Origin: an uncultured Gammaproteobacteria bacterium
GTDB lineage: Bacteria > Patescibacteriota > Patescibacteriia > UBA1558 > S5-K13
Direction of reading: 5' to 3'
Assembly: GCA_964639335.1 (NCBI GenBank)
Contig: CAZXCJ010000001.1
Span: forward strand, 1-60,025
DNA length: 60,025 nt
The notes beneath the pieces are model-generated. The model ran no database searches. It saw only the letters and a program-made list of their open reading frames with translations, and was not told the origin of the DNA. The translations under genes were made by a program, and so were the position numbers. Position 1 is the stretch's first letter. The number at the start of each line of letters is the position of its first letter. This document shows, piece after piece, positions 5,277-17,462 of this stretch.

Positions 5277-6572
5277 CTAGATATTAAATTTTTTTACTTT
5301 TTCCAAAACATCTGATAAGGTCTCTCCGAAAAATATTAAACCATCTTGGTGCCCGCCCATAACTAAAACTCCTTGGTCTCTATTGGCTTTCTTCTGTAAA
5401 ATCTTCTTAATAGAAAAAGCCATTTCCGGGGTCCCATAAGCGGCCATCTGATCAGTAGTAGGAACCTTACCTTTTAATTTCTGCCATAATTTCCGGTTAT
5501 GAATATGAATAACGGCCTTAATAGAAAGACTAGAAACATAAACCGCTAAATGGCTCATGCTCTCTGAAGAAGGCTTGCTTCCCCCAGAATAAACCACTTG
5601 ATTCTGCTTAAAATCCCAATCCAAAATTAAAGAATAATGTTTTGTTTTCAAATTCTTCAAGCCTCCGCTGGCACTGCCGGTGATAATAAATTTATTCTTT
5701 CCATAACGACAGCTAATATTCCCGAAACCGATCCCACTTTTATACATTCCAATCATATTTTTCCCCCAAAAATAATCCCGATATTTATCTAATTCTTTAA
5801 TATCTTTATTTTCTAAAGACTTATATTTTTTTAACCAACAATTAAATTTAATATAACCTTCGTCATTTATTTCTAAAATGTTCAATAAGTCACTGAATTT
5901 GCTAATGGAATAATTAGCCCTTTTTACTTTGGCATTACTAAAATGAATCGAAGTAAATCCCATCCGATTAGCACCAATAACATCCATTTCATAATTATCA
6001 CCAATCACATAAACCTGACAATTTTGACCACACTTAGATTTTTTTAAAGCTAATTTAAAAATTGCTGAAAACGGTTTTTCTCGACCGATCTCCTCCGAAC
6101 AAACTATAAAATCAAAATATTTAGCTATACTTAACTTTTCTAATTTTTTAATTTGGACATAGGTTAACAAATTAGACACTAAACCCATTTTAATTTTGCT
6201 TTCATACAATATCTTTAGGGTCTTTTCAACTGTGGGAAATAATTTTAGATATTTATAAGTTGTTCGCCAATAAATATCAGCTAAATCATCCTGAAGAAAC
6301 TCTGGATCACTAGGAAATTCTATAATCTCTAACATTCTCTGGAAGTATAATAAACGATTATGAGATGAAGCCGTCCCTTTTAAATTTTTATGAACATATT
6401 TTCTAGATTCACCATATAACTCATTAAACTTCTTTCTAGAAAATTTTGGCTTATATTTTTTAAAAAATAAAAAACAAACCTCTTTTGCTTTGGTATAGGC
6501 CTCTGTAGAATTACATAAAGTATCATCCAAATCTACTAATAATAATTTACCCATAAATTTATTATAGCACAA
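5277..6572 (-). CDS. fusion protein: HAD-family hydrolase (N-terminal) plus class II aldolase/adducin-like domain (C-terminal)
   Basis: LLVDLDDTL, GLVSN and IGDNYEMDVIGA are HAD motifs. The C-terminal SESMSHLAVY...VIHIHN pattern matches class II aldolase. The true start may be the Met at 6554. Confidence 0.6.
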   Translation of the reverse strand: MCYNKFMGKLLLVDLDDTLCNSTEAYTKAKEVCFLFFKKYKPKFSRKKFNELYGESRKYVHKNLKGTASSHNRLLYFQRMLEIIEFPSDPEFLQDDLADIYWRTTYKYLKLFPTVEKTLKILYESKIKMGLVSNLLTYVQIKKLEKLSIAKYFDFIVCSEEIGREKPFSAIFKLALKKSKCGQNCQVYVIGDNYEMDVIGANRMGFTSIHFSNAKVKRANYSISKFSDLLNILEINDEGYIKFNCWLKKYKSLENKDIKELDKYRDYFWGKNMIGMYKSGIGFGNISCRYGKNKFIITGSASGGLKNLKTKHYSLILDWDFKQNQVVYSGGSKPSSESMSHLAVYVSSLSIKAVIHIHNRKLWQKLKGKVPTTDQMAAYGTPEMAFSIKKILQKKANRDQGVLVMGGHQDGLIFFGETLSDVLEKVKKFNI

Positions 6573-6638
6573 AACAAAAAATCACTTTTAAATAAGTGAA
6601 TTATTCTAGTCAATATCACCCCTTCCTTTTTTAAAGCT

Positions 6639-6884
6639 TTACTTTTTACTTACTAACTTCTCCTTTCCAATTCTAGACCATTTCTTAATTTGTCTTTCTC
6701 TTCTCATGGCCTCAATTTTAGTTTTAAACTCTTCAAAATATATAATTTTGACAGGTCTTCTTTGCTTAGTATATTTTGCACCTTTTCCTAAATTATGTTT
6801 CTTTTCTCTAGAATCTAAATTTTTACAATACCCTGTATAAAATGAGCTATCCCTGCACTTAGCTATATATGTATAAAATGACAT
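6639..6884 (-). CDS. GIY-YIG nuclease-superfamily protein (YhbQ/UPF0213-like)
   Basis: FYTYIAKC..SFYTGYCKNLDSREKKHNLGKGAKYT...RERQIKKW. Confidence 0.8.
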   Translation of the reverse strand: MSFYTYIAKCRDSSFYTGYCKNLDSREKKHNLGKGAKYTKQRRPVKIIYFEEFKTKIEAMRRERQIKKWSRIGKEKLVSKK

Positions 6885-6904
6885 AAAATATATTTAAAAC
6901 GTTT

Positions 6905-7031
6905 GTCCCTCGACTCCTCATTACATTCGTCGCTCGGGACACTCGATTCGTTTTTAAAAAGAATGGTTGGAATGAAGCGAAGCGAAATGAAAACCACGAG
7001 TGAGTCCCGAATTTATGAGGGACGAATCGAG
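6905..7031 (-). other. GC-rich structured spacer between tRNA-Ala(UGC) and the GIY-YIG gene
   Basis: 11-bp long-range complement (6940-6950 with 7023-7033) and 5-bp stems gtccc/gggac at 6905/6936 and 7004/7019. Confidence 0.4.
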
Positions 7032-7108
7032 TGGTGGACCTGGAGAGACTCGAACTCTCGACCCCCTGCTTGCAAAGCAGGTGCTCTAGCCAACTGAGCT
7101 ACAGGCCC
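7032..7108 (-). tRNA. tRNA-Ala (anticodon UGC), CCA encoded
   Basis: Cloverleaf gggcctg/caggtcc with G3:U70, anticodon loop ttTGCaa, T-loop ttcgagt. Confidence 0.93.
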
Positions 7109-7168
7109 TTATTTTATTATATATTAATCTTATATTATCGAATAACTATTTAAAATCTAATTGTTATT

Positions 7169-7281
7169 TGCGAAGTTGGGAACCAACTGTCGCAGACCCT
7201 GAGCCCGTCGAAGGGTCGAAGATCCTCCGTAGTCCCTCACTTTTTAAAAAAGTGGGGGGCGAAGGGGGAAGCTACAGGCCC
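7169..7281 (+). repeat. GC-rich multi-hairpin element ending in a 12-nt complement of the tRNA-Ala 5' end
   Basis: Hairpins at 7169-7194 and 7195-7218; nested module 7223-7269 (tcctcc-gtag-[hairpin]-cgaa-ggggga); 7270-7281 is identical to 7097-7108. Confidence 0.55.
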
Positions 7282-7401
7282 ATGTAGGAATTTTCAATTA
7301 CCAATTATCAATTTACAATAAATTTTTAATTATTGAATTATTAATTAAGTATGGCCGCGCCACAAACCCGAGTAAGGAGTTTACGACGAGCGAGTGGTTT
7401 A

Positions 7402-7478
7402 TGGTGGGTCCTATAGGATTCGAACCTACGGCCTTCTCGGTGTAAACGAGACGCTCTAACCAACTGAGCCAAGGACCC
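7402..7478 (-). tRNA. tRNA-Val (anticodon UAC), CCA encoded
   Basis: Acceptor gggtcct/aggaccc, anticodon loop ttTACac, T-loop ttcgaat. Confidence 0.92.
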
Positions 7479-7546
7479 GTATGAATGTAAATAACAAATT
7501 ACAAATTTCAAATTACAAATAAAAACTTTTTAAAAAGAACTACTTG

Positions 7547-7597
7547 TCCTCCGTAGCTCCGAATCTTGTGAGGAGCGAAGGAGGAAGCCAAGGACCC
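7547..7597 (+). repeat. nested-hairpin module ending in a 12-nt complement of the tRNA-Val 5' end
   Basis: tcctcc-gtag-gctcc..ggagc-cgaa-ggagga-agc followed by caaggaccc; 7586-7597 is identical to 7467-7478. Confidence 0.55.
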
Positions 7598-7717
7598 AAT
7601 AAATTAATTTTGAATTATCAATTTTTAATTTCAAATAAATTTTTAATGAATTAATCTTTAATTAAAAATTTTGGGATTCAGATTTAAATTAAAATTTAAA
7701 ATTCAAAATTCAACTGC

Positions 7718-7806: not shown

Positions 7807-7843
7807 AAAGGTCTACCAGACTGCCCCGCATATGAAGGAAGTA

Positions 7844-13066: not shown

Positions 13067-13084
13067 ATTGTTCCACGTGGAACA
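13067..13084. repeat. 18-bp perfect palindrome ttgttccacgtggaacaa (copy 1)
   Basis: Exact palindrome with aaa/ttt flanks. Confidence 0.8.
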
Positions 13085-13161
13085 ATTTCATTATAAAACC
13101 CCTTAAATAAGCTATTAAATCATAATTTATAATTGAAAATTTATAATTGAAAATTGAATTA

Positions 13162-13187
13162 TGGTGTCCCAACCAGGACTTGAATCC
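13162..13187 (-). pseudogene. orphan tRNA 3'-end fragment (T-loop, acceptor, CCA)
   Basis: rc reads ggattcaagtcctggttgggacacca. It shares ttcaagtcct and the terminal acca with the tRNA-Leu 3' end. No matching 5' half is present. Confidence 0.4.
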
Positions 13188-13225
13188 CATTATACAGCGG
13201 AACAGGCCTGAATCTAATACTAAAA

Positions 13226-13356: not shown

Positions 13357-13374
13357 TTGTTCCACGTGGAACAA
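13357..13374. repeat. 18-bp palindrome ttgttccacgtggaacaa (copy 2)
   Basis: Exact copy. Confidence 0.8.
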
Positions 13375-13496
13375 TTGTAAATAAACAGTAGGGGCGTAAA
13401 CTATTCGTTAAGTAGTATTGTAAATAGCGCTGGTGGCAGCGCCATGAACTTGAATCAAGGAATAAACCTTAGCTCATGACAAAGACAAATAGTTCA

Positions 13497-13570
13497 TGGA
13501 GCGGGATACGAGAATCGAACTCGCGTTTATAGCTTGGGAAGCTAGCGTATTGCCACTATACTAATCCCGC
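13497..13570 (-). tRNA. tRNA-Gly (anticodon CCC), CCA encoded
   Basis: Acceptor gcgggat/atcccgc, anticodon loop ttCCCaa, T-loop ttcgatt. Confidence 0.9.
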
Positions 13571-13680: not shown

Positions 13681-13698
13681 TTGTTCCACGTGGAACAA
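13681..13698. repeat. 18-bp palindrome ttgttccacgtggaacaa (copy 3)
   Basis: Exact copy, 3 nt beyond the stop of the 13702 gene. Confidence 0.8.
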
Positions 13699-16524: not shown

Positions 16525-16917
16525 TTATTTTAAAATTTTTTCAGCTCCACAATAAATTTCCTCAATATTTAAAATAACAGCTGATTTAGCTTCTGTTGTA
16601 GGGTTATGTCTTAATTCTTCTACCCATTTAACTGTTTCTTCAAAAATAGGACCATCCTGATAGATTTTTACATTACCCTTCAACTGATAAGACTTCCCGC
16701 TCTCTTTATCTAGAATAACAAAAGACATCTGAGGATTCTCTTTCAAATTTTTCTCTGTTTTAAAAAATTTATTATTCGCAATTAAAATCTGACTATCATT
16801 ATAAACTTTCAAAAACTTAACATAAATAAGATTCGGTACATTCTCCTTAGAAGATGTGCCCAATATATATAGTCCCTGATCATTAATTGCTTTTTGAATA
16901 TAGTCTGGAATATTCAT
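16525..16917 (-). CDS. pyridoxamine 5'-phosphate oxidase-family FMN-binding protein
   Basis: Size and split-barrel-like pattern only. Confidence 0.5.
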   Translation of the reverse strand: MNIPDYIQKAINDQGLYILGTSSKENVPNLIYVKFLKVYNDSQILIANNKFFKTEKNLKENPQMSFVILDKESGKSYQLKGNVKIYQDGPIFEETVKWVEELRHNPTTEAKSAVILNIEEIYCGAEKILK

Positions 16918-16930
16918 ATATTTATTAATT

Positions 16931-17179
16931 TTAAATTTTTATTAATCTTTTATTTCTAAAAGCTATTCCTGAAGCAGTTTTTAAATATTTTTCGAAATCT
17001 AAGGCAACTTTTTTATCTTCAAATGCAGAATAAAAAACAATTTTCCAAGGCTTAAATTTATTTGTATATACTGATTTCCCAGAATTATGACCATTTATCC
17101 TATTTTTAATAGTTTTAGAGAATCCTGTATAAAATCGTTTAGGATAATTAATACTTTGAATAATATAGACGTAGTACAT
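16931..17179 (-). CDS. GIY-YIG nuclease-superfamily protein
   Basis: YYVYIIQS...RFYTGFSKTIKNRINGHNSGKSVYT..PWKIVFY. Confidence 0.8.
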   Translation of the reverse strand: MYYVYIIQSINYPKRFYTGFSKTIKNRINGHNSGKSVYTNKFKPWKIVFYSAFEDKKVALDFEKYLKTASGIAFRNKRLIKI

Positions 17180-17310
17180 ATTAATTTTTTTAAATCTAAC
17201 GAACTGGCCGTGCCATCCGAAGCGCAGATAATAATTATTTTAAACTTTTGTTGTCTAAGCAAGCCCTGCTACGCTAAAGCTACGCAGGGCATCCTTCGCT
17301 ACGCGAAGGA
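17180..17310 (-). other. structured spacer between tRNA-Ala(GGC) and the GIY-YIG gene
   Basis: 10-bp hairpin 17290-17299/17303-17312; 7-bp stem gccctgc/gcagggc at 17263-17290; GC-rich block at 17203-17224. Confidence 0.4.
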
Positions 17311-17386
17311 TGGTGGACTCGGGGAGACTCGAACTCCCGACCTTCTGCATGCCATGCAGATGTTCTACCAACTAAACTACGAGCCC
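17311..17386 (-). tRNA. tRNA-Ala (anticodon GGC), CCA encoded
   Basis: Acceptor gggctcg/cgagtcc with G3:U70, anticodon loop atGGCat, T-loop ttcgagt. Confidence 0.9.
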
Positions 17387-17410
17387 TTAAATAATTTTAA
17401 TAAATCAATG

Positions 17411-17462
17411 TGGCCAGCTGCCTGTCCGCTGAAGCTTTAGCGAAAGCGGAAGCTATAGGCCC
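17411..17462 (+). repeat. nested-hairpin module ending in a 12-nt tRNA-Ala-5'-end-like complement
   Basis: tccgct-gaag-ctttag-cgaa-agcgga-agc-tataggccc. The 12-mer matches tRNA-Ala(UGC) at 11/12 positions and the adjacent tRNA-Ala(GGC) at 8/12. Confidence 0.5.

Follow-up and report, generated by a model that had tools for sequence, protein, structure and literature searches.

The 60,025-nucleotide (nt) stretch analysed here, called the window, is part of contig CAZXCJ010000001.1 from an uncultured bacterium of the Patescibacteriota. It carries two modules in which a transfer RNA (tRNA) gene for alanine is followed by a structured spacer and a small GIY-YIG nuclease gene. Comparison with other loci showed that the recurring element is a cassette composed of a structured leader RNA (~130–150 nt) and a minimal GIY-YIG nuclease gene of the UPF0213 type. 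These cassettes dock behind many tRNAs and behind transfer-messenger RNA (tmRNA), and their first base immediately follows the CCA, or the discriminator base if the CCA is not encoded. The first helix of the leader is predicted to pair onto the last bases of the tRNA. Sequence comparison also indicates that the cassette sometimes arrives with a foreign tRNA that replaces the resident one and leaves a stub of 12 nt. On balance, we lean towards the reading that the modules are selfish, homing-like insertion cassettes that dock at tRNA 3′ ends and share the transcript of the tRNA.

Six tRNA genes were annotated in the window with ARAGORN and Rfam, all on the minus strand, and all features of the two modules lie on the same strand. 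In module 1, the host of the cassette is tRNA-Ala(UGC) with an encoded CCA (7032–7108; ARAGORN; Rfam tRNA 71.5 bits). It is followed by the class I leader (trailer) RNA at 6903–7035 and by ORF1, an open reading frame (ORF) of 81 amino acids (aa) at 6639–6884. Module 2 has the same order, with tRNA-Ala(GGC) at 17311–17386 (ARAGORN), the class II leader at 17180–17313 and the 82-aa ORF2 at 16931–17179. A partial tRNA copy lies upstream of the tRNA in both modules. In module 1, a stub element at 7170–7281 joins a copy of tRNA-Ala nt 1–12 (GGGCCTGTAGCT, 7270–7281) to GC-rich hairpins, and the pattern of this copy has three matches in the window vs. 0.2 expected. In module 2, the stub at 17410–17462 joins a 12-mer (17451–17462) to a class II-like hairpin. 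ORF1 and ORF2 are the only GIY-YIG ORFs in the window. Three slots immediately follow a tRNA cluster, and the two ORFs fill two of them. A terminator scan found no terminator-like site between tRNA-Ala and ORF1 on the minus strand. A weak hairpin (TCACTT..AAGTGA) with a T-run was read from the sequence after ORF1 (6576–6599, minus strand); the scan requires at least three G-C pairs and therefore did not report it. This hairpin is likely the end of a tRNA–leader–ORF transcript. The tRNAs, the ORFs, the 11-bp helix of the spacer, the GTCCC/GGGAC stems and the 12-nt copies all stand where a first-pass annotation of the window had placed them. Its spacer of about 130 nt measures 147 nt. The 12-nt copies of the tRNA 5′ end that it described upstream are present in both modules, but the second one (GGGCCTATAGCT) mismatches its own tRNA (GGGCTCGTAGTT).

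The nuclease genes are strongly associated with tRNA genes. For the ORF2 family, a same-strand tRNA ends at most 300 nt upstream in 43 of 63 metagenome loci, compared with an expectation of 0.0077 per locus from the tRNA density of their own flanks (binomial p ~1e-75). The ORF1 family was scanned with a profile in one genome per species, and 80 loci were returned. Among the loci with enough upstream sequence, the same arrangement was found in 11 of 21 loci of the Candidate Phyla Radiation (CPR) type and in 1 of 61 others, mostly Firmicutes (Fisher p = 2.6e-7). The first seven relatives of ORF1 were directly preceded by tRNA-Glu, by tRNA-Val or by a cut-off tRNA 3′ end, or were directly followed by a tRNA. 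The co-occurrence of nuclease and tRNA is not a matter of chance, and the linked tRNAs have at least 12 identities, including Ala, Ile, Lys, Val, Leu, Glu, Tyr, Pro, Met, Ser, Thr, Gln and Gly. Several statistics in this study rest on loci that were fetched because they contain the nuclease or the motif.

By sequence, both ORFs are assigned to the catalytic-domain-only GIY-YIG proteins of the UPF0213/YhbQ type. ORF1 matched Pfam PF01541 with E = 1.9e-18 (67 bits) and ORF2 with E = 3.8e-16 (59.6 bits), at a cut-off of 22.6 bits. ORF2 is a divergent paralogue and shares 34% identity with ORF1. The domain covers residues 3–71 of the 81 residues of ORF1, and the proteins end 10–12 residues after it; the domain thus fills the protein and leaves no DNA-binding module. 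In an alignment of 20 sequences including both window ORFs, Y6, Y16, G18, R26, H30, N31 and E63 are invariant, and the GIY-YIG catalytic residues are conserved. The nearest solved structures in a profile search were the UPF0213 proteins 1zg2 (BH0048, 2.2e-27) and 1ywl (EF2693, 2.3e-24) in the PDB, and the next was SLX1 (5.6e-05). No NCBIfam family was found for ORF1 or ORF2. At least three nuclease paralogues occur behind different tRNAs in one small genome. The GIY-YIG proteins are ~70% identical where the adjoining TrxB is only ~40% identical. The protein also has relatives in phages (Rhizobium phage TM30, 45% identity), and these do not adjoin tRNAs.

The spacers of the ORF1 type share a motif of 130–150 nt, the class I leader. 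In the window, helix P1 is formed over 11 bp by CACTCGATTCG (7023–7033) and CGAATCGAGTG (6940–6950), beginning at C75-A76 of the encoded CCA. It is followed by hairpin P2 with a GTCCC/GGGAC stem (7004–7023), the conserved core CTCACTCGTGG (6994–7004), hairpin P3 (UGGUU..AACCA, 6964–6996) and P4 (GUCCC..GGGAC with tandem G.A, 6905–6940). The 5′ part of the consensus consists of the CCA and YUCGAYUCG (5′ strand of P1), the variable hairpin P2 and the core CUCRCUCGUGG. The 3′ part consists of the hairpin UGGUC..GACCA (P3), a linker, CGARUCGAG-UG (3′ strand of P1) and GUCCYGAGYGA..GARUCGARGGRC (P4). The P4 half alone, a query free of tRNA or protein information, was searched in 185,579 genomes and gave 74 matches, of which 54 have the conserved core. 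Among these 54 copies, a tRNA directly precedes 32, and a tmRNA or tmRNA-like 3′ end precedes 12, with the tmRNA confirmed by Rfam in two loci (L140 and L153); the remaining ones are mostly second or third tandem copies. A GIY-YIG ORF follows the leader in 21/54 and starts 5–55 nt behind P4. The hosts are CPR lineages, Planctomycetota (tmRNA–leader–GIY-YIG) and Acidobacteriota (leader only). Where the CCA is not encoded, the motif starts directly after the discriminator base.

Covariation supported the class I structure. In an alignment of 22 sequences with 25 pairs, 90.7% of the cells were paired, compared with 30–45% when the partners were slid, and 52 cells carried double changes, compared with 4–11. 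The covariation score was 0.30 vs. at most 0.10 in the controls, and none of 500 shuffles reached the observed score. G.U pairs are frequent, which places the structure on the tRNA-sense strand. The covariance model R1 gave a single strong match in the window (6903–7035, 105.8 bits) and no match in ~55 Firmicute loci. A standard kink-turn in P4 was rejected, as the bulge-bearing strand does not fit; tandem G.A pairs are more likely. Visual inspection gave no consistent covariation for a pseudoknot of CUCRCUCG with the P4 internal loop. TGGCACNGCCA was also considered as a sigma-54 promoter, which was rejected for want of a -12 element. A genome search for GGGCCTRTAGCTTCC...TTCGC gave one real match (L001, Uhrbacteria) and one coding-region coincidence (L002).

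A second motif, the class II leader, was found in 43 spacers of the ORF2 family, and copy 2 of the window fits it. After the CCA, its consensus begins with xyzUUCGC..GCGAAz′y′x′UG(G), continues with GCCCUUCGUAGCYUURGCGAAGAAGGGC and ends with ..ACGz′y′x′UGGCACAGCCA. In the window, hairpin H1 is CCATCCTTCGC..GCGAAGGATG (17290–17313) and H2 lies at 17264–17289, while CGGATGGCACGGCCAG (17204–17219, with CGGATGG) holds a second complement of CCATCC. An exact complement of CCA+N1-3 (xyz) is present in 30 of 37 distinct class II spacers, and the two sides covary: TTC with GAATGG in 19/19, GCC with GGCTGG in 7/9 and TCC with GGATGG in 4/8. Leader class and nuclease subfamily are matched, class I with the ORF1 type and class II with the ORF2 type. 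All nucleases linked to class I are closer to ORF1 than to ORF2, the spacers of the ORF2 family contain no class I sequence signatures, and the class I model gave one weak match only (21 bits) upstream of ORF2-family genes. Neither leader class had a match in Rfam 15; only tRNA and tmRNA were reported in the window and in L104, L140, L153 and L178 at E up to 1. Since nothing else appeared even at permissive thresholds, known ribozymes, the T-box, group I introns and tRNA-like families are ruled out. On the evidence of pairing and covariation, the spacers are two covarying RNA families without prior description. Class II leaders also hold minisatellite-like units of 28–56 nt (..GCTACGAATGGCACAGCCAT..), the copy number of which varies between near-identical contigs (L195/L196, L184/L186, L180).

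The extent of the unit can be read from contig L010, which belongs to a strain of the same organism. This contig carries the cassette of the window behind tRNA-Ala and a second cassette behind tRNA-Ile. The homology of the two L010 cassettes runs from the base after the CCA to approximately the stop codon only, and the flanks are unrelated. Their leaders are ~65–70% identical and their ORFs 83%. A compensatory change keeps P1 paired, with U-A in the window and C-G in L010. The leader and the ORF were therefore duplicated as a unit within the genome.

Orthologous loci of related genomes differ in their cassettes. Two contigs (L256 and L258) were reached through homologues of the downstream HAD-aldolase gene, and they share the order L19 gene, tRNAs, HAD gene and M50 peptidase gene. 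In L256 (HAD 74% identity), the L19 gene is followed by tRNA-Leu, 8 nt, tRNA-Val, 22 nt and tRNA-Ala, and immediately by the terminator and the HAD promoter. No stub, leader, nuclease or model match was found in this operon. In L258 (HAD 77% identity), tRNA-Val has a stub, class I leader(s) and a 78-aa GIY-YIG gene, and tRNA-Ala has a solo class I leader, which sits between its CCA and the same terminator as in L256. In the window, the cassette lies behind tRNA-Ala, and tRNA-Val has a short trailer only. The locus of module 2 is also empty in the genome of L256, where contig L260 has TrmB, tRNA-Ala(GGC), 29 nt and TrxB, with nothing inserted. The slot from tRNA-Ile to tRNA-Phe was found in four states: a class I leader with an ORF1-type nuclease (L010), a short hairpin with an ORF1-type nuclease (L004), a class II leader with an ORF2-type nuclease (L171) and a class I leader alone (L166). 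Cassettes are thus present, absent or relocated at orthologous loci of related genomes.

The stubs show that resident tRNA genes were replaced. The 12-mer GGGCCTATAGCT at 17451–17462 is identical to nt 1–12 of the L260 tRNA-Ala(GGC) at the same position. The present tRNA-Ala(GGC) of the window is identical to that of L260 at only 55/76 positions, and its best match is the cassette-linked tRNA of L203 (66/76). Since the stub equals the L260 5′ end and the present tRNA diverges, the resident gene was replaced from position 13 onward. The incoming segment carried a foreign (xenologous) tRNA-Ala(GGC), the class II leader and ORF2. In L258, a 16-nt stub of the resident tRNA-Leu lies beside a different tRNA-Leu(GAG). 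The fetched loci together hold 248 tRNAs, and 19 distinct partial copies lie upstream of such genes. Fourteen of these break at nt 11–14, ten of them exactly at nt 12, and the genes include Ala, Val, Thr, Gly, Cys, Ile and Phe. A separate scan with a similar seed found no copies of the first 12 nt downstream of a tRNA. What follows the stub after the break is similar to the beginning of class II trailers, and the module 1 stub element is absent from the empty orthologous operon of L256. We interpret the upstream 12-nt element as the left-border scar of inserted material. The idea that stub elements are unrelated to cassettes was dropped on the empty-site comparison (L256, L260).

These comparisons revise part of the first-pass annotation. 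It had counted the hairpin with the 12-nt copy as part of the module; this hairpin is a scar, a stub of the resident tRNA, and not a working part. It had tied the unit to tRNA-Ala, and many tRNA identities and tmRNA are used instead. It had also treated the tRNA as a fixed member; the minimal repeated unit is the leader RNA plus the ORF, starting directly after the CCA, and the tRNA accompanies it in some events only, among them copy 2. The spacers are not peculiar to each copy and belong to two widespread RNA families that are also found without a nuclease gene. Its core idea of a tRNA-linked functional or mobile unit of the homing-cassette type holds, on the tRNA enrichment and the presence or absence between related genomes. 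The enrichment of nuclease genes next to tRNAs that it proposed to look for was found (43/63; 11/21 vs. 1/61), as was presence/absence polymorphism between related genomes (L256, L258 and L260), and the Rfam run that it suggested for the spacer gave no match.

Other tRNA fragments were observed around these genes. A tRNA-Val stub element (7543–7597, minus strand) joins nt 1–12 to a TCCTCC..GGAGGA hairpin, and no nuclease gene lies behind tRNA-Val in the window genome. Promoter-like hexamer pairs (TTGAAA with 16-nt spacing; 7607–7634 and 7484–7511, minus strand) end 6–10 nt before the Val stub and the real tRNA-Val, so that both may be transcription starts at or near position +1. An orphan tRNA 3′ fragment with T-arm, acceptor 3′ strand and CCA (GGGATTCAAGTCCTGGTTGGGACACCA, 13162–13188, minus strand) lies ~37 nt downstream of tRNA-Arg(CCU). 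It has no matching 5′ half and is another tRNA-gene remnant. Upstream of tRNA-Leu, ATGCGGGGCAGTCTGGTAGACC (7807–7840, minus strand) resembles a tRNA 5′ half (acceptor and D-arm); the element is duplicated in L258 (1085–1200) and missing in the compact L256 operon. In the Uhrbacteria locus L001 (5783–6160), ~135 nt of leader plus tRNA-Ala nt 1–12 are duplicated almost perfectly around a 110-nt insert, which indicates that stubs can include the whole promoter region. The insert begins with a TCCTCCTTCGC hairpin, and no nuclease gene is present there. Some upstream partial copies reach nt 22–40, carry GC-rich hairpins of 20–57 nt in the D-loop and end in the anticodon arm (L155 6424–6525; L166, minus strand, upstream of tRNA-Ile; L202 679–827). 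The window and L010 are 99.6% identical over 3.4 kb. The tRNA-Val body (window 7402–7478, L010 1906–1982) differs at ~9 positions and has the anticodon CAC in place of UAC, and the tRNA-Leu upstream has CAG in place of GAG. The flank becomes wholly different ~18 nt before the Val stub. Together, these differences look like patchwise tRNA gene replacement between strains.

We propose the following mechanism. The cassette would be transcribed from the tRNA promoter, which is consistent with the lack of a terminator-like site upstream of the ORF. The leader would be a processing or insulating module that marks the exact 3′ end of the tRNA; that the junction is exact whether or not the CCA is encoded speaks for such a 3′-end-defining function. 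In this way, tRNA maturation could survive the insertion and the nuclease mRNA could be released, and the leader would correspond to the ribozyme of an intron that carries an endonuclease. The nuclease may promote its spread by cutting tRNA genes. The candidate cleavage region is the recurrent break at tRNA position 12/13 in the D-arm, which is only a hint of the cleavage site. Repair from a cassette-bearing copy would then co-convert the neighbouring sequence, as for phage T4 SegB, and leaders without an ORF may be remnants after ORF loss. We speculate further, and with some doubt, that the leaders are a new tRNA/tmRNA 3′-end device that either cleaves itself at its 5′ boundary or brings in RNase P or some other RNase. 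The 80-aa nuclease would thereby be the 3′-terminal analogue of an endonuclease-bearing intron, targeting the tRNA D-arm (nt 12/13) and replacing resident tRNAs with foreign ones across CPR, Planctomycetota and other phyla.

Several observations weigh against selfish cassettes. Leaders or leader-like trailers are common without a nuclease. Among 178 CCA-encoding tRNAs, a sample of fetched loci biased toward CCA-pairing trailers, C75-A76 and the next 7 trailer bases find a perfect 9/9 partner within 200 nt in 35%, compared with 1.5% in controls. Of the tRNAs without a nuclease gene, 26% have CCA-pairing trailers, compared with 1.6% in controls. Two trailers of this kind lie in the window on the minus strand, and in both the first helix starts inside the CCA. 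The tRNA-Val trailer (7351–7404), which is missing in L256, has the helix CCAUAAACC/GGUUUGUGG followed by GGCGCGGCCA, and the tRNA-Gly trailer (13427–13499) has the helix CCAUGAACU/AGUUCAUGG and a GCGCUG..CAGCGC hairpin (fold z = -3.9); both are leaders without an ORF. In Acidobacteriota, too, several tRNAs are followed by a leader but by no nuclease gene. On these grounds, the leader itself may serve the host. The separate DNA-binding domain of I-TevI/Seg homing endonucleases is absent from both proteins, so that site-specific cleavage is not obvious. The UPF0213 family is not tRNA-linked in Firmicutes (1/61) and may therefore have an ordinary cellular role. No presence/absence polymorphism was found among near-identical strains, as contigs with identical neighbours all carry nuclease genes; the cassettes may therefore not be very active now. 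The class I pattern had no match in 2.9 million viral contigs, and all comparison sequences are metagenome assemblies.

An alternative is that the parts simply serve the host, with CCA-pairing trailers as tRNA/tmRNA 3′-processing, CCA-protecting or terminating elements, UPF0213 as an ordinary repair or structure-specific nuclease whose expression is tied to tRNA transcription, and the copies produced by ordinary duplication and loss. The frequent CCA-starting helices at nuclease-less tRNAs (including tRNA-Val and tRNA-Gly of the window), the solo class I copies in Acidobacteriota, the Firmicute UPF0213 genes away from tRNAs and the strains without polymorphism all fit, and a junction that is exact with or without an encoded CCA is what a 3′-end-defining signal would need. 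We nevertheless consider this explanation unlikely. A close relative lacks trailers, stubs and nuclease at both loci, and related genomes carry the cassette behind different tRNAs. One small genome holds at least three nuclease paralogues behind different tRNAs, foreign tRNAs replace resident ones and leave stubs, and the nuclease is far more similar than the neighbouring housekeeping genes. The two modules could also reflect accidental adjacency, as small GIY-YIG ORFs and tRNAs are common in CPR intergenic space and the window itself offers two cases only. The chance of this is practically nil: the counts given above (43/63 vs. 0.0077 expected, p ~1e-75; 11/21 vs. 1/61, p = 2.6e-7) refute it, and the conserved junction and the leader families contradict it as well.

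Mobility could also be of another kind. The leader might be mobile DNA that folds as single-stranded DNA, and the GIY-YIG protein a structure-specific transposase or nickase (cf. REP/RAYT and the IS200/IS605 ends with TnpA), with an internal ..UGG guiding insertion next to ..CCA. Genomes with many ORF-less copies, tandem arrays (two copies in L139, three in L153) and unit numbers that differ between near-identical contigs (L195/L196, L184/L186) would suit such a transposon. CA or CCA precedes even the copies outside tRNAs, the nearest solved relatives after UPF0213 are SLX1 structure-specific nucleases, and single-stranded DNA hairpins tolerate G.T pairs too. But CCA alone cannot explain the near-exclusive use of tRNA/tmRNA ends, the element follows the discriminator base where the CCA is not encoded, and the import of a whole foreign tRNA looks like recombinational repair. 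We also know of no GIY-YIG enzyme that acts as a transposase, and we rate this explanation as quite improbable. Very improbable, in our view, is an RNA-directed enzyme, in which the GIY-YIG protein cuts the tRNA–leader junction or the leader and forms a cis-encoded device for tRNA/tmRNA 3′ maturation. Each nuclease subfamily indeed goes with one leader class, the helix of the leader extends across the 3′ end of the tRNA, and the ORF lies 5–55 nt behind P4. However, 33 of 54 leaders have no adjoining nuclease gene, both parts are missing from related genomes, and the known GIY-YIG enzymes (UvrC, Slx1, I-TevI and SegB; for SegB, PMC2330249) cut DNA.

The gene neighbours of the cassettes in the window are L19, HAD-aldolase, TrmB and PNPOx. 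The PNPOx-like gene (16525–16917, minus strand) lies between ORF2 and TrxB and is missing at the empty locus L260; it may have arrived with cassette 2 or may have been lost in L260. The HAD-aldolase gene (5277–6572, minus strand) encodes a fusion of 425–431 aa between a HAD phosphatase and a class II aldolase-family domain, which is reminiscent of fused methionine-salvage enzymes. Relatives of its aldolase part are joined to PF01008 instead. A perfect 18-bp palindrome, TTGTTCCACGTGGAACAA, occurs in three copies (13068–13085, 13357–13374 and 13681–13698) around the tRNA-Gly/tRNA-Arg pair, and may be either a repeat element or a site to which a regulator binds.

A GIY-YIG selfish gene in a tRNA cluster is already known from phage T4. 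Full-text literature searches on GIY-YIG with tRNA, tmRNA or CPR/Patescibacteria, and on UPF0213/COG2827/YhbQ, found no description of the cassette; the first-pass annotation had likewise known of no system with this layout, and Rfam yielded none. To the best of our knowledge, the new features are the cellular setting, a nuclease of minimal size, the pair of dedicated leader RNA families at tRNA/tmRNA 3′ ends and the position-12 stubs. If our reading is correct, a compact selfish cassette has colonised tRNA and tmRNA genes in the smallest bacteria known, with its own RNA solution that spares the host tRNA. The cassette could swap whole tRNA genes between lineages, and such a route of tRNA turnover has gone unrecognised in cellular genomes. 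The tRNA 5′ stubs of metagenome assemblies would be accounted for by the recurrent break at position 12/13. The uncharacterised UPF0213/YhbQ proteins would gain a testable function, and two widespread, strongly covarying RNA families would be added as candidates for a new ribozyme or RNase signal. Annotation pipelines now miss all parts of the cassette.

Integrative islands and prophages with tyrosine integrases target the 3′ ends of tRNA/tmRNA genes. The cassettes share these targets and have tRNA fragments at their borders, but they measure only 0.15–0.4 kb, and the leftover is a 5′ stub ending at nt 12 and not a 3′ duplicate. No integrase lies next to the cassettes at the loci examined; one integrase-family gene was found in L258, ~1.7 kb upstream beyond the L19 gene. 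In MALAT1-mascRNA and in polycistronic tRNAs, RNase P acts on a tRNA-like fold and thereby sets the 3′ end of the RNA that lies upstream of it. The leaders are similar in that a downstream helix begins at the wanted 3′ end, whatever the upstream RNA (tRNA, tmRNA or another leader copy). They differ in that they are not tRNA-like by Rfam, and their first helix enters A76/C75, unlike an RNase P substrate.

The proteins resemble the UPF0213/YhbQ structures 1zg2 and 1ywl in size, in the single domain of about 80–110 aa and in the conserved catalytic residues. However, the solved proteins are structural-genomics entries without an assigned function, and the sampled Firmicute relatives have neither a tRNA neighbour nor a class I leader. 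Group I introns carry homing-endonuclease genes, and the GIR1 lariat-capping ribozyme lies upstream of the I-DirI mRNA. The proposed cassette is comparable, as a structured RNA would keep the host RNA functional or process the nuclease mRNA, the nuclease would spread the unit, and RNA-only remnants would persist. Unlike an intron, the cassette is an unspliced 3′ appendage and the tRNAs are intact; the leaders had no group I or other ribozyme or intron match in Rfam.

Seg-type enzymes carry a DNA-binding region. SegB is a free-standing GIY-YIG homing endonuclease in the T4 tRNA gene cluster; it recognises a conserved tRNA-gene motif (the T-psi-C stem-loop) and spreads with flanking tRNA genes (PMC2330249). 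Segmental amplification is reported to be promoted by SegB as well (PMC13096335). In both systems a GIY-YIG gene lies among tRNA genes, and in the cassettes, too, foreign tRNAs arrive and resident tRNAs are truncated. SegB is a phage protein, whereas the cassette proteins have 81–82 aa, consist of the catalytic domain only and are found in cellular genomes. The cassette also has a dedicated conserved leader RNA that begins at the tRNA 3′ end. As for homing endonucleases, presence or absence at orthologous sites was found together with co-converted flanks: the sites are empty in L256 and L260, the cassette is relocated in L258, and a foreign tRNA stands beside the stub of the resident one.

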